Positions 24,001 through 30,000 of a DNA stretch of 64,000 bases are shown here, piece by piece (position 1 is the first letter of the stretch; each line of letters starts with the position of its first letter). The stretch comes from an uncultured Planctomycetota bacterium (GTDB taxonomy: Bacteria; Planctomycetota; Planctomycetia; Isosphaerales; Isosphaeraceae): the NCBI GenBank assembly GCA_963845755.1, contig CAWJTV010000042.1:160001-224000 (forward strand), in the 5' to 3' direction. The position numbers were made by a program.

Positions 24001-27000
24001 ACGAGAACGCATTTCGGCCGAAATCGGCAGGATTTTCGAGTTAAGTCTTGATTTTACAAGGAGATAAAATTCTTCAAAATTTCTAGGTGTCGGTGGATTG
24101 TACGGGAGCGCGGTCGATCGACGCTCGAACCGGCTTGCGCAGGGTCACCGGCCGATACTCTCAAGGGCGCTTCGGGTTAGCTCGAGAGACGTCCGCGTCG
24201 AGTTGGGCGAAAGCCCTGTGTGGCGTGCGTTAGAGCAGGTCGAGGGACGTCCGTGTCCTTGCGGCGGATCAGCAAGCCGTTCCGCTCGACCATACTCATG
24301 CGGCTGCCCAGGCGCCGAAAGACCGGCGTCAACACTCATCGAGGTGATGGAGAATAGTACCAGTAGCCGGTGATCGTCCCCGGATTCGACGCCGGAAGCT
24401 GGTAGACGGGTTGAGGAGAATAGTACCAGTAACCTGTGATCGTCCCCGGATTCGACGCCGGAAGCTGGTAGACGGGTTGAGGAGAATAGTACCAGTAGCT
24501 TGGGGTCGTTCCCGGATTCGGCGCCAGAAGGTGGTAGGTAATCGGGAGGTTGGAGTATCCGCCATTACGACCTGGCCCAGAGTTCTGGTCACCAGCCGGG
24601 CGCCGGAGGAATAGAAGCGTACCTCTCGGTCATCGGCGTGGGCGGAAGCCCCAAGAATGCCGTTTGCCGTCGCCGCGACAACGGTAACGCAGACGAACGT
24701 TCGCAATTCTGAACGCATGACGAACCTCCTGGTCAGAAGCAGCTTGGTTTTATCCTTCGCGAAGATACGCCGCGGATTACCCCGAAGGGCCGGGCGTATG
24801 AACGGGCGCCACTTGATTTTTTCGATGAAAAGCGGCGAATTTCCTCCGCTCACCACCACCTCGGTGCCGTTGGTGTTCAGCGTGCGCCCTCCGGCGACCA
24901 CGAGGTGGGTGCCTTCGATCACGACCGCGACTCCGTCGTAGGTCGCGTGCAACTGCACGGACTCTCCCGACACTCCCTTCACACTGCACGCCCTGTGCCT
25001 GTTGGCGACTTCGTGACCATCGTTCGGATTGAGAACGCGCCTCGACGAATCATGGCCGCCTGTCCATGCCGCGCGGGATCTCCATGATCTGGTCGGGTTT
25101 GTCAACTTCACTGCGTTGGTTTGCATCCATGATGGCCTGTCGAGCCGAACGTACGAATGCCACCAACGCCGATAAGAGCCGCGCGACGTCACCACGGCCG
25201 TTCACAGTTGTGGCTGATCGCGATCCTGCGACGTGAGCGCACGCGAAAACTCGAGGAGTTCGAGCGCTTCACAGATGGGTTGCGCACGCAAACAGCGGAT
25301 CTTCTGCGGCCTGAAGGGCCGCCAGAGCCTATCCCGGGGTGAAAACCCGGGACTCGGTCGTACCGCCGCGACGGGTGCACCCTGACGGGGTGCTGGCGGG
25401 GGTCTCCTGCGGCCCTACAGGCCGCTCGGATGCGGGTTTGCTGTCGGACCCCGGGTTTCACCCGGGGCTGGACTTCTATGACCCCAACAGAGTGGCATAT
25501 AGCCCGTTGATACCTGATACTGTCATCCCTCTGAGCCGCCTCAGAGGGCGTTGAACCCGACCCTGACGCCGGATTGCTGCTTGCATGGAGGTGATCGTCC
25601 TCGCGACGTCCTACCACGGAGAGCGGACATGACACGACGATCGGCCTTGGGACGGCACAGCCTCCGCATCCACCGGGAGTTCGTCCCCTCCCGCTGCCAG
25701 CTCCGCGCCCTGGCCTTGGCCTTCGAGCAGGCCCTCCCCATCATCCGGAGGCCGCTGACGACGCCGGCACGACCACAAATGTTCGTTGATTCTGATTTGA
25801 ATTCGTTCACACAACCAGGCCGTTCGGGGGCCCTCCGATGACCGAACCCATCGACCGCCGCGCCGCCTTGTACGCCAGGGTCTCCACCGAACAGCAGGCC
25901 CAAGAGGACACGATCGCCAGTCAACTCGATCTGTTGCGCCGGCGGATCCAGGCCGATGGCCTGACCGTCGCCCAGGAACTCCAATTCGCCGACGACGGTT
26001 ATTCGGGCGAGACCTTCCGGCGCCCCGCCCTGGAACGGTTGCGCGACACGGCCGCCGCCGGGGCGATCGACCGGATCTACATCGAGTGTCCCGACCGATT
26101 GGCACGGGATTACCCGTATCAGATGGTCGTGGTCGACGAGCTGCGCCGCCAGGGCGTCGAGGTCGTCTTCCTCAATCACGACCTCGATGAGAGCCCCGAG
26201 GGTCGACTGCTGTTGCAAGTCCAGGGGATCATCGCCGAATACGAGCGGGTCAAGGCCCGTGAGAAGTGTCGCCGCGGCCGGCTCTACGCGGCGCGGTCGG
26301 GCCAGGTCAGCGTCCTGGGCGGCGCGCCTTACGGATACCATTACCACACCAAGCAGGAGGGAGGTGGCGCGGCCCGGTATGTCGTCCAGTTCGCCGAGGC
26401 CCAGGTGGTCCGAGAGATCTTCACCTGGGTGGGGATCGAAGGATGTTCGCTCAGTCAGGTGTGCCGACGATTGCGAGAACGCGGGCTCCTTACCCGCACG
26501 GGCAAGGCGCATTGGGATCGGGCCACGGTCCTGGGCATGCTGCGCAACCCGGCTTACATGGGGACAGCCCACTTCAACAAGGTCCATTGCGTCCCGGCCC
26601 GTCCCCGGTTGCGCCCGCGTCGGGGAGTCCCCGAGTTTCCACGGCGACACACCGCCAAAGCGGCGACGCCCCCCGAGGACCAGATCCCGATCCCGGTGCC
26701 GGCGATCGTGGAGCCGGCCCTGTTCGAGGCCGTGCAGGAGCGGCTGGCGGAGCACCGCCGACATCCCGGCCAGGCGGCCCCCCGGCCGCGCCATCTGCTG
26801 GCGGGCTTGGTGGTGTGCCAGCGGTGTGGTTACGCGTATCGCGGTCGGGCCATGAAGAAGAAGGGAGGGAGTCGCTATGGCTATTACCGCTGTTATGGGG
26901 CGGAGGCCGAGTCCTTCGCCGGCCGGGCCCGGATCTGCGACAATCCGGCGATCCGGATCGAACGTCTGGACGAGGCGGTGTGGTCCGATGTGCGCGGGTT

Positions 27001-30000
27001 GTTGCTGGAGCCGGAGCGGTTGGCTGAGGAATTCGAGCGGCGGTTGAGTCGGGCGAACCGAGGCGAGGGGACGACTCAGTCGAGTCGGAGCCTGGACAAG
27101 TTGATCGGTCAGGTCCGCCGCAGGCTGGCGCGGCTGGTGGAGATGTACGCCGACGGATACATCGAGAAGGAGAAATTCCAGAGAGATATGGATATTTCTC
27201 GAACACGAATGTCAGAATTGGAGTCGGAGCGTCGGGCGATGGACCAGGAGGAACAGCAACGGGAGGAGTTACGGTTGGTGATGGGTCGGATCGAGGAATT
27301 CGGGCGCAGGTACGCGCCGGTTTGGATACCAGCGACGTGGCGACGCGTCGTCGGATCATTTGTGCACTGGTCAAGAAGGTCGAGATCGATGCCGAGGCGG
27401 TTCATATTGTGTATCGTGTGAGCCCTCGCCCTTTTGCCCAAACGGCCCCGACAGACGGTAACATGCCACACTGTTGGGGCCGTTCCTGCGGCCTTTCAGG
27501 CCGCCGGTGATCGGCTAGCCTCGTGTGTGCAACGCAAGCGTGATGCGCTCTAGCCCGTTCCTGCCGTCGTAGTGTTCCTGAATGAGGCTAGCGACACGAC
27601 CGTCGTAAACATATCCTCAAACGGAAGCGGCCGCAGTTCTGGGCCGGAGATCGCGTCGGAGGGCCCGGGCCGTCATGTGCAAGAATCGCATCTTCGTCAG
27701 CGCGACCATCCGCGATCTGGGCAGCTATCGCGAGCTTGCCAGCAAGACCCTGCGCGAGCGCGGCCACGACGTCGACGATCGGGCCGTCTTCAACCTGACT
27801 TATCTCGAGATCGGCGAGAAGCTGAAAAGCCGGATCGCGGCGTGCGATGCCGTGGTCTGCCTGATCGGCTGGGTCTATGGCGGCGAGCCGTTGCAACGCC
27901 CGCCGGACCAACCTCGCCGGTCGTATACCCAGTGGGAGTATTTCCTCGCCCGGGAGCTCGGGAAACCGCTCTACCTCCTGTTGGCCGGCGAGACGACAGC
28001 GTTCGTCTCCGATCCGCGCGGACCGGAGAGCGACGACCTTCGGCAATTCCAGAAAGACTATCGCGCCGAGGTCATCCCCAAGCGGGACTGGCGGCCGTTC
28101 GCGAACAACGACCAGCTTCGCGCCGAGCTGGCCCTGCTCCGCTTCCCCTGGGAGATCCCTTCATTACCACACAAGCCCAACAACCTGCCGCTGATCTGTC
28201 GCCCCGTCGGGGCTCGCCGGAGGGGAGGGAGCCGAGGCGTGGCGAGTGGTCCCGGGGGTTGACATCCCTGGGCTTTGCGATCCCGTCCCGTTGGGACTGG
28301 CCGGAGCGTCTCGGTCGGGAACCGGTCGATTCTTGGGTGGACTCTGATGCGCCTGTCGCCTTATGACGCCGGCAAGCACGTAGGTCAGGCGTTCCAGCCT
28401 GACGGGATGGAAAGCCTGACCTACATGACGTGTCAGCGATCGATCGACTTCATCGCCTGCGCGTGGTACCGGTCTCCCGAGGCGACGCCCACCGGCAGGA
28501 TGGCATCGATCTGGGCCAGCTCTTCGGCCGTCAGGCGGACGGGGACCGCACCCAGGTTGTCATCGAGATACGTGACCCGCTTCGTGCCGGGGATCGGCAC
28601 GATGTCCTCCCCCTGGGCCAGCACCCAGGCGAGCGCGAGCTGGCTCGGCGTGCAGCCCTTGGCCGCGGCGAGCTGCTCGATCGTCTTGACCAGGTCGAGG
28701 TTCTTCGTGAAGTTCTCGCCGTGGAAGCGGGGCAGGTTGCGGCGGGCGTCGTCGGCCGGCAGGTCGTCGATCGATCGGATCTGGCCGGACAGAAATCCCC
28801 TCCCCAGCGGGCTGTAGGCCACAAAGCCGATCCCCAGCTCTCGCACGGCCGGCAGCACTTCGGTCTCGACCTCGCGGGTCCAGAGCGAGTACTCCGTTTG
28901 CAACGCCGCGATGGGGTGGATCCTCGCCGCGCGACGGATCGTCGCGGGGGCGGCCTCCGAGAGTCCCAGATGGCGGACCTTGCCGGTCGTCACCAGGTCG
29001 GCCATCGCCCCGACGGTTTCTTCGATCGGTGTCTTGGGATCGACCCGGTGCTGGTAGTAGAGGTCGATCGCCTCCACGCCCAGCCGCCGGAGACTCGCCT
29101 CGCAGCAATCCTTCACGTACCGCGCGTCGCCGCGGAGGCCCAGGAACTCGCCGCTCGCGCCGCGGACGTTGCCGAACTTGGTCGCCAGCACCACCCGGTC
29201 CCGGCGCCCTGGATCGCCTTGCCGACCAGGACCTCGTTGCGGCCCACGCCGTACATGTCGGCCGTGTCGAGGAAGTTGCCGCCGCTGTCGAGGTAGCGGT
29301 GGATGACGCGGATCGACTCGGCGTCGTCCATCTGTTTCGGGTCGTAGAACTCGCTCATGCCCATGCAGCCGAGGCCGATCGCCGAAACCTTCAGACCGCT
29401 CCGACCCAGTTCACGCTCGGTCATCGTCTTTCCTTTCCGTTGTCGAGACTCTCGCATCACCTCCGGGTCAGAAACCGCTTGTGTCCCCGCGCCGAAGGGG
29501 CCGCGACGATCCGGTGCAGGAAGGATATCGCGGCTTCGGCCGCTGGCTGACCGTCGGCCGCCGTCAGGCCGGAGCTGGGCTCGACGGCGACGCCAGAGAG
29601 CAAGGACTGGGTGCACGCGATGCTGTAATCATCCTCGGGATTCGGTTTCGGCAGGTCCTGGTTGCGCTCGGCGCCCGAGTTGTCCATGCCTGAAGCTTCC
29701 GGAAGTTGCGTGAAATCGTGTGGACAGCCTCCCAGCACAGGGAAGTCTCCGGCGGCCCAAGCGACGCGGCGCAGTTGACCGGATTATCACATCCCAAGGT
29801 CAGACGTCGCAACTCTCACTATGGAAAAGTGGAGATCAGTGGGGTGGATTCGCATCGGCCCTGGGGTTTGCGCCTCTCAGTCGCCTGGCTCCCTAGACTT
29901 GTCCGGACGGCGTGAACCCGTTACTTTGGCAGGATCGGGTGGCGTGTCGGCAGATCGCAAAGGAACTGGATCGATGATCACACCGGAGGAAGCGGCCGAT

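Follow-up and report, generated by a model that had tools for sequence, protein, structure and literature searches.

Movement in several copies, through a circle and under the control of a large serine recombinase, is known from Tn4451 with TnpX and from Tn5397 with TndX, and the element described here would move in the same way. The insertion sequences that target REP sequences belong to IS110, IS3 and other families, and REP13E12, a repeat also used as an attachment site, is a long one and not a 46-nt pair of hairpins. In the window, a stretch of 64,000 nucleotides from an uncultured member of the Isosphaeraceae (GCA_963845755.1, contig CAWJTV010000042.1, positions 160,001 to 224,000), we analyzed a 2-kb element that is very probably best explained as a minimal two-gene serine-integrase element using the linker of the Acido-Lenti-1 motif (RF01687) as attB.

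The element shares with the large serine integrases of phiC31, Bxb1, and SPbeta, as these are presented in PMC12286644, the order of domains, a site of 46 bp that is symmetric around its 2-bp core, an orientation set by that core, and a small partner, here predicted to sit at the junction between zinc domain and coiled coil; it differs from them in having no phage or cargo, in being a two-gene, 2-kb, multi-copy element, in aiming at a dispersed repeat, and in carrying attP inside the recombinase gene. The serine integrase of phiRv1 in Mycobacterium tuberculosis also has its attB in a repeated sequence, but phiRv1 is described as a prophage-like element and its REP13E12 target differs from Acido-Lenti-1 (PMC9317374). 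ISPsy8, ISPa11, ISPpu9/10, and ISRm19/22 likewise have small palindromic repeats as their specific insertion sites (Tobes and Pareja 2006, PMC1525189), although the enzymes in that account are transposases, whereas here a large serine recombinase acts with att sites. The multi-targeting clade of large serine recombinases, in which 63% of members carry DUF4368 and many unrelated targets are used (Durrant et al. 2022, PMC10083194), is comparable in its multi-copy movement; the present element differs from what is reported there in lacking DUF4368 and cargo and in having one fixed target motif instead of a loose specificity. In Dehalococcoides, the recombinase gene dsiB overlaps the att site and lacks its own stop codon, and the suggestion was made that the circle alone carries it in complete form, as here, but it belongs to a six-gene module with the single-copy target ssrA, and its C termini are called divergent by the authors (PMC3146451), while the tail found here is conserved at the codon level. 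As for the target, the REPtrons/REPINs and TnpA-Y1 subclass 1.2 offer a likeness, with inverted hairpin modules around a Y1 gene, dispersed gene-less doublets, and the Y1 signature, even though that subclass is described as generally devoid of typical terminal structures (Quentin et al. 2018, PMC6006769) and the targeted subtype has no GTAG foot. In the literature searched, we found no published example in which a large serine recombinase targets a REP-like hairpin repeat or Acido-Lenti-1.

The preliminary description of this DNA had listed six copies of the element, all of which proved to be full at the places given, with identities of 99.46 to 100%. Its bounds of 25481 to 27498 were not kept, since the element runs from 25477 to 27484 and is flanked by copies of a 2-bp core at 25475 to 25476 and 27485 to 27486. 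The left core is TC here versus CC in the other five copies, and across this junction the window agrees with a public contig. According to the junction reading, the left att arm (25477 to 25498, plus strand) consists of 3 nt followed by a 19-bp repeat and forms attL together with the core, and the right arm (27463 to 27486, plus strand) consists of the 19-bp repeat and 3 nt, followed by the right core CC, and forms attR. The 19-bp inverted ends noted previously are thus real as a repeat (17 of 19 positions match), but they are to be read as attP arms, i.e., half-sites, and not as terminal inverted repeats. Next to the right arm lies an inverted partial copy of it (27441 to 27462, minus strand), which folds against that arm (z of -5.4) and has similar counterparts in relatives. 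Taking both junctions of the six copies together, attP measures 22 + 2 + 22 bp, that is 46 bp, with inverted arms symmetric about the core, and the core is all that is repeated at the insertion ends. As read from these alignments, all six insertions, with core CC, have one orientation; asymmetric cores go with a single orientation within each genome, and a sister element with a palindromic core is inserted in both. The right junction of the copy on contig C13 is better read as having one missing C, and its interpretation as a core mismatch was set aside. At the left end of the element, no sigma-70 promoter or terminator was found.

The element interrupts a MITE-like repeat at 25260 to 27552 (end pair C42:185260-187552), with terminal inverted repeats of about 30 bp and a length of about 285 bp when empty, and the flanks align, as had been reported, with an intact copy on contig C39; the identity is about 95%. 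Within this repeat, a double hairpin of the Acido-Lenti-1 type, the inverted and uninterrupted partner, occurs at 25307 to 25351 on the minus strand; its C39 counterpart scores 37.9 bits on RF01687, in agreement with the earlier figure, and the window copy is below the cut-off. It is followed by an inner hairpin with a hairpin-2-like module devoid of hairpin 1 (25377 to 25425, plus strand), an arrangement that is never a target, with none of the 23 such modules in the genome occupied. The left half of the target, at 25449 to 25474 on the plus strand, comprises hairpin 1 (25449 to 25467) and the first 7 linker bases, and the right half, at 27487 to 27502 on the same strand, the last 3 linker bases and hairpin 2. 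The reported layout, with hairpin 1 to the left of the element and hairpin 2 to its right, holds in all six copies. The empty site on C39 matches model positions 1 to 46 with 30.6 bits (E value of 1.3e-4), below the cut-off of 37, and shows two hairpins with a linker of 12 nt between them that starts with CT (fold z of -3.5). The linker, previously given as 5 to 7 nt, is also 12 nt in the Rfam model, where the core corresponds to positions 28 and 29; 7 nt separate it from hairpin 1 and 3 nt from hairpin 2. Hairpin 1 stands on the left in 6/6 insertions versus about 40% of 143 hairpin-2-like modules, and one of three motif subtypes is hit in this genome, namely, the one with a matching linker core (39 of 49 copies).

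The insertions had been described as lying inside MITEs, but it is the Acido-Lenti-1 module that is targeted, and the MITE is not needed, as these MITE ends occur on none of the seven flanks checked in three other genomes. The repeat has the traits of a MITE, being short, noncoding, multi-copy, and bounded by terminal inverted repeats, with 49 of 64 end pairs spanning 100 to 399 bp. The count of 68 ends and 12 short pairs given before depends on the search pattern, other patterns returning 97 ends with 18 pairs or 229 ends with 64 pairs. The MITE ends are TA, which may represent the target duplication; where the end pairs are long, inserted elements lie between them, and an autonomous partner sharing these ends was not identified among the end pairs.

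The central claim, that a serine-recombinase element uses the motif as its attachment site, was borne out and reaches beyond this genome. We found the same register in three other genomes (G227, G350, and G697), in a remnant in G017, and in the metagenome contigs L040 and L043. A strict hairpin lies exactly 3 nt after the core in 15 of 21 distinct right junctions, versus 2.5% at random places, and hairpin 1 with CT lies exactly 7 nt before it in 12 of 17 left junctions, versus 0.3% for the null, the copies and relatives counted not being independent of one another. Among the junctions failing the strict hairpin test (6/21 on the right, 5/17 on the left), one is a reversed insertion and the rest are degenerate or altered. 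The recombinase tails, compared with patterns written after the tails had been seen, fit the register in 28 of 34 readable members of the clade versus 9 of 59 more distant proteins (null, 1.2%); the tails of the other six members do not fit it, and in cluster P0031 the reading differs for most members. The clade itself has a support of 1.0 in the tree. Matches to the arm with one mismatch in 401 genomes are mostly at chance level, and among the genomes opened, the element or an end of it occurs only in G227, G350, and G017. Relatives at 62 to 81% identity use other motif subtypes. The cores across targets are CC, CT, GT, AT, and TT, and the clade supplies natural integrase/attP/attB sets with different cores. 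Related clades aim at coding motifs, and from related clades that use other targets one would learn how the target of these enzymes changes. With regard to a second Acido-Lenti-type clade, the query P0044 recovered no member from the phylum sample (300 other genomes), and it is therefore the tails that speak for that clade.

The recombinase gene (25838 to 27510, plus strand) encodes catalytic, recombinase, and zinc-ribbon domains (PF00239, PF07508, and PF13408, in this order and all over the cut-off), with Ser16 and the zinc Cys residues conserved. Its conserved frame is free of stops within the element and continues across attR as far as 27510. The 527-aa protein described before is the product of a frameshift, with a base missing near 27301 and a stop at 27421; contigs of all four public runs have the extra base there. 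The frames of the six assembled copies measure 527, 527, 122, 141, 395, and 339 aa, and none is unbroken. The domain search found no DDE domain in the element, an IS607-type transposase was not matched (NF033518, 17.4 bits versus a cut-off of 110, for the G350 orthologue), and DUF4368 is absent from the frameshifted protein and from the precomputed domains of 120 homologues. The identity of 61% to an intron-targeting element, previously assigned to the catalytic half, holds for the first 120 residues (58 to 61%) and falls to 47% overall; the two belong to the same family but not to the same clade of the tree, and hence the label "sister" was too loose.

As judged from the sequence, attP is located inside the recombinase gene, at its 3' end; it follows that the C-terminal tail would differ, being conserved on the circle and target derived in the integrated state. 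In particular, the left end encodes a latent tail of 25 codons (25477 to 25554, plus strand), in frame only once the two ends join and thus existing only on the circle. In codons 11 to 24, pairwise comparison of five clade elements gave 40 synonymous versus 9 nonsynonymous changes in this frame and 5/35 and 0/47 in the other two. The protein P0191 of a sister clade is a natural recombinase-plus-tail product, a natural joint being present in 1 of 43 matches; in its predicted fold, the pLDDT is below 50 for residues 400 to 472, and the strand drawn at 435 to 443 is not reliable. For the element in the window, whose circle we infer, joined ends occur neither in its own genome nor in 121 genomes of the family, and no circle joint was seen in the contigs of four runs, which can show presence and not absence. 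The clade in this way supplies a testable link between the state of the DNA and the C terminus of the enzyme.

Upstream of the recombinase gene, and overlapping its start with the stop codon, a 70-aa open reading frame (25629 to 25841, plus strand) encodes a candidate recombination directionality factor. Its product forms a conserved family, is identical in all six copies, as had been noted, and has no match in Pfam or NCBIfam; a search of the ESM Atlas returned only unnamed clusters below 0.9. The complex of recombinase and small protein predicted for the G350 orthologues, folded in place of the window's own pair, scored 0.70 versus 0.00 for the best control, a mark that 116 of 157 solved complexes reach, as do 2 of 215 mismatched pairs. 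At least 78% of the contacts are shared between runs, the pLDDT of the partner is at least 62, and the small protein is placed at the junction between zinc domain and coiled coil, i.e., where directionality factors bind. Even though the prediction may pass through likeness to solved integrase-factor structures, the 70-aa protein probably acts as a directionality factor for excision, and the clade would supply a candidate of no known family.

RF01687 was matched at 16 of 20 Y1 transposase loci, over the cut-off at 7 and as an inverted bracket at 10, and in the window's genome at 3 of 10 Y1 loci, which are the three nearest to the subclass-1.2-like query. The Y1 product is 150 aa long and has the signature DHVH ... 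YxxxQxxHH. Since the motif brackets IS200-like Y1 genes, the element probably targets a DNA repeat of REP-like type. At least 53 matches to Acido-Lenti-1 occur in one genome, as brackets around Y1 genes, dispersed doublets, and tandem arrays; 34 of 49 copies of subtype B have an inverted partner within 400 bp. A GT[AG]G foot at the hairpin is present in subtype A and absent from the targeted subtype B. From these arrangements, we take Acido-Lenti-1 to be, most likely, a module that forms the ends of an IS200-like Y1 transposase unit and of its gene-less doublets, which would give the element a dispersed, multi-copy landing site; an RNA role at the 3' ends of genes, as for REPs, is possible.

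In the explanation that we hold very probable, the element would leave as a 2-kb circle, whose joint is the 46-bp attP, and the circle would integrate into a short, degenerate attB, the Acido-Lenti-1 linker recognized in its duplex form, crossing over at model positions 28 and 29, the dispersed intergenic repeat serving as landing site. The recombinase made from the circle would then carry the conserved tail, and that made from the integrated copy a tail derived from the target, and the 70-aa protein would probably direct excision. Read directly from sequence are the fixed site, its core and orientation, the conservation across the clade, the association with Y1 genes, and the coding signal of the tail. 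A wider proposal, which we regard as speculative and rather doubtful, is that the 2-kb family has specialized clade by clade on motifs conserved in other selfish DNA, namely, those of intron reverse transcriptases, those of IS5-like transposases, and, in the present clade, the ends that Acido-Lenti-1 forms on Y1 units, and that it has, in addition, a built-in switch of direction, the circle-encoded tail filling the binding site of the 70-aa factor, so that the protein made from the circle could only integrate and that of an inserted copy could excise.

Other explanations concern what the recombinase recognizes and what the motif is. The fixed geometry of the sites, maintained while stem sequences and cores vary among targets, and the importance of both motif halves would suit an enzyme reading an extruded or single-stranded double hairpin, but we consider this quite unlikely, as the conserved target bases resemble the attP arm (a C run 6 to 8 nt to the right of the core, GG-CT on the left), stems are broken in several targets, only the subtype with the matching core is used in the window's genome, and related clades aim at coding motifs. 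Serine integrases are, moreover, established as acting on duplex DNA, which also counts against a readout of structure. That Acido-Lenti-1 is a functional small RNA, whose gene is used as attB in the way tRNA genes are by other integrases, agrees with the Rfam entry, which classes it as an sRNA of unknown function, and with its rating as a probable RNA (Weinberg 2010). This is nonetheless very unlikely given the number of matches in one genome, mostly inverted doublets, the Y1 brackets and tandem arrays, and a motif that is split by the insertion and not restored; the crossover of a recombinase clade at a single dinucleotide and the place around Y1 genes argue for a DNA element.

The shared site could also be mere inheritance, one old insertion having been copied passively as the surrounding MITE transposed, and the six copies do lie within one MITE family, with similar left flanks on C42 and C20. 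However, elements that are 99.5 to 100% identical stand in MITE flanks that differ in stems, linkers, and layout, and the junctions of the more distant relatives in other genomes, in other subtypes and without these MITE ends on the seven flanks checked, largely refute this account, which we hold to be highly improbable. Likewise highly improbable, in our view, is that the element is a conventional insertion sequence, bounded by terminal inverted repeats and flanked by a short duplication of the target: size, copy number, and inverted ends would fit, but no transposase of DDE or IS607 type is present, the repeated sequence is just the core of 2 bp, the frame continues past the right end, and the family has a natural end-to-end joint. 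The data are instead best accommodated by the serine-integrase element with its attB in the Acido-Lenti-1 linker.

Relatives of the element were not found in viral contigs; the plasmid matches are all below 60%, and the record of pWW53 names no element. An inversion between the two copies on contig C11 was ruled out, the repeat outside the first MITE being continuous across it. A seventh locus, on contig C9, holds the right end of the element only.

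The element and its targeting of the Acido-Lenti-1 double hairpin are real, conserved and well defined. The preliminary description had placed six copies at one point of these hairpins, which we confirmed, and had given the window copy a span of 25481 to 27498, which we redefined as 25477 to 27484, the stretch between two copies of the core. The 14.3-Mb genome contains six full copies (identity, 99.46 to 100%) and, on contig C9, a 58-bp remnant of the right end. In all six copies, the left side presents a 7- to 8-bp hairpin, 7 linker bases and the 2-bp core, and the right side presents the core, 3 bases and the second hairpin; the core is the only sequence duplicated at the junctions. 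The 19-bp inverted ends previously described are indeed present, identical in 17 of 19 positions, with 3 nt between each of them and the core, but they proved to be the arms of an attP-sized site around it. End-to-end joining would form a 46-bp site symmetric about CC, which is the size expected of a serine-integrase attP (about 40 to 50 bp; PMC12286644). All six insertions have a single orientation; the intron-targeting sister, with its palindromic core, occurs in both orientations among its six copies.

On C9, a MITE shows a core-exact junction at each of two inverted motifs. Two head-to-head insertions with a later deletion would fit this arrangement, as would recombination of the inner arm with the second motif, and either reading requires action at the same dinucleotide. 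At this locus (L003, G000:C9:40891-41085), the whole MITE interior between the two cores has given way to a 44-bp piece from the right end of the element. An inverted copy of the right att arm, lying inward of it, was also noticed at window 27441 to 27462, and in relatives and the sister.

The window flanks align with an intact 284-bp MITE on C39 at about 95% identity. The empty site matches all 46 positions of the Rfam model RF01687 with 30.6 bits, short of the 37-bit cut-off, whereas the inverted partner of this site reaches 37.9 bits; the crossover core corresponds to model positions 28-29. With 150 of 3281 candidates scored, the source genome (G000) gave at least 53 matches, at least 33 of them over the cut-off, and none was found in 14 control genomes. 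The 107 double hairpins detected by scan fall in three subtypes, A, B and C, and only B carries insertions; the core is CC in 39 of 49 B copies and in no A or C copy. Hairpin 1 is on the left in all six insertions (chance about 0.004 if insertions are independent), versus 47 of 143 hairpin-2-like modules so classed and some 4 more by eye, from which it follows that both motif halves matter. At L004 (G000:C11:819174-821464), four levels are nested: the MITE interrupts a GTAG-type palindromic repeat, the hairpin doublet lies in the MITE, and the element in the doublet.

Of 121 family genomes, 4 carry members of the clade, the source genome being one of them. G227 has 19 arm matches (core CT), G350 two copies (core CT) and G697 two copies (core GT). 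A right-end remnant is found in G017, and contigs L040 and L043 hold one element end each, that of L043 being reversed, with a symmetric AT core. A strict hairpin starts exactly 3 nt past the core in 15 of 21 distinct right junctions and within one base in 18 (null, 2.5%), and 12 of 17 left junctions pass the strict test (null, 0.3%). This MITE's ends were present in none of the seven flanks checked outside G000. The recombinase frame leaves the element before it meets a stop, so protein tails report the target: among 39 homologues at 64 to 86% identity, 28 of 34 readable tails match hairpin 2 read forward or hairpin 1 read in reverse, and among 80 more distant ones 9 of 59 do so (null, 1.2%, with patterns drawn up after the tails had been inspected). 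A tree built with FastTree from 113 sequences (some of the homologues together with 26 loci) separated the Acido-Lenti-1-targeting clade (support, 1.0) from the intron-targeting and putatively IS5-type-targeting clades, with the 9 distant fits mostly within a second clade. Proteins P0041 to P0057 form a second recombinase clade (about 54% identity); judged from the proteins, their tails likewise correspond to Acido-Lenti-1 hairpins. In a cluster within the clade (P0031 and P0143 to P0152), most tails do not fit the register, and its members may now use a different hairpin repeat.

As for its nature, the identities of DDE insertion sequence and IS607 element were both rejected. Tn4451 and Tn5397 are likewise moved by large serine recombinases. 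The features checked from sequence fit an element behaving like a phage serine integrase, sharing its working mode but stripped to two genes. REP-targeting transposases (PMC1525189) and phiRv1 (PMC9317374) are known to use repeats as targets, as the element does. In a literature search that took in neither subscription papers nor ISfinder, we found no account of a serine recombinase that targets Acido-Lenti-1 or REP-like hairpins, nor any publication that treats Acido-Lenti-1 as the end of a Y1 unit. In the parts of PMC2864571 and its supplement that were searched, no text describing the motif was found; such text may bear on its known context.

In the frame that extends the recombinase over the joint, the left end of the window copy has 25 open codons. 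Left ends from three clades behave alike, with at least 25 open codons in 50 of 51, the lone exception having a one-base offset in its arm. Over tail codons 11 to 24 of five Acido-Lenti-clade elements, we counted 40 synonymous versus 9 nonsynonymous pairwise changes, and 5/35 and 0/47 in the other two frames, the pairs not being independent. A search with tail peptides returned 43 longer proteins; one of them, P0191, is a recombinase that passes directly into tail sequence where the joint was predicted, and its source reads as a circle or tandem pair of the sister clade. A precedent for an att site inside the recombinase gene is dsiB, which overlaps its own att site and may, as PMC3146451 suggests, be complete on the circle alone. 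In the relatives at L113:429-584 and L043:106-261, the stop of the circle-form tail overlaps the start of the small ORF, an overlap by which the two genes would be coupled in the ring form. The clade of L006 to L009, L015 and L042 to L069 (46 to 50% identity, core GT) has its own conserved circle-form tail; its elements all enter the same codon of what, from the flank motif, is presumably an IS5-type transposase.

The small ORF, a candidate directionality factor (RDF), is conserved over its first 40 residues in all clades. The predicted complex of the intact G350 pair scored 0.70, versus 0.00 for the best control; of 157 solved complexes, 116 attain the score mark, as do 2 of 215 mismatched pairs. 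Separate runs share at least 78% of contacts, with partner pLDDT of at least 62. The model thus supports binding of the small protein to the recombinase in this pair, and resemblance to complexes already solved may account for the result. The predicted contacts involve recombinase residues 373-402 and 488-527, that is, the zinc domain and coiled-coil base. According to PMC12286644, known RDFs are predicted to bind at the zinc-domain/coiled-coil junction, mostly adding a strand there, and C-terminal strands of SCCmec recombinases could block the RDF site. By analogy, these strands suggest that the circle-encoded tail might conceivably act as a switch, blocking the small protein's site.

Pfam recognized the three LSR domains in the recombinase. 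A base is missing near 27301 in three of the six copies, the window copy among them; contigs of all four public runs have an extra base there, and the downstream frame is kept in homologues. Since every assembled copy (6/6) has a frame break of some kind and neighboring housekeeping genes are split too, assembly error is likely, with decay a less likely explanation. These genes (window 20437 to 23366 and 29821 to 31811) are broken into frames that overlap, as single-base assembly errors would produce.

Concerning the motif itself, a Y1 (HUH) transposase gene on C41 has inverted motif copies on both sides. Its 150-aa protein contains DHVH and YxxxQxxHH, the signature of TnpA-Y1 subclass 1.2 of Quentin et al. 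(PMC6006769); its score with the IS200/IS605 model is 53.6 bits, against a cut-off of 55. Among 20 Y1 loci scanned, part of 30 fetched with this protein, RF01687 matches (E up to 1) occur in 16, over the cut-off in 7 and as an inverted bracket in 10; 3 of 10 Y1 loci in G000 have a match, at 25 to 28 bits. Furthermore, the MITE ends in G000 surround unrelated interiors as well, 22 of 64 end pairs containing subtype B. Given these interiors and the Y1 bracketing, the MITE has apparently taken in a REP-like doublet, whose module is the element's target. Tandem arrays of Acido-Lenti-1 modules were observed at L153:14-1409 of G035 (19 copies, about 75-bp spacing, adjoining a Y1 gene) and at G227:C31:74766-76536. 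The same MITE ends surround an other-type 192-bp interior, split by a transposase-like gene, at G000:C11:1005423-1007205, C37:134316-136109 and C6:76077-78112.

Elsewhere in the window, three tandem 66-bp repeats (24349 to 24546) lie in a 288-codon minus-strand frame 700 bp left of the MITE, and two 63-bp direct repeats separated by 106 bp (23605 to 23773) lie upstream of dehydrogenase genes, presumably for 2-oxoglutarate dehydrogenase, as named from translation. Two more families of palindromic repeats, of which one has a GTAG foot, occupy 53146 to 53204 and 28364 to 28405, and 13662 to 13729, 46180 to 46225 and 55625 to 55692. The only Rfam match over the cut-off in the window is a minus-strand tRNA gene with a long variable arm (16880 to 16968).
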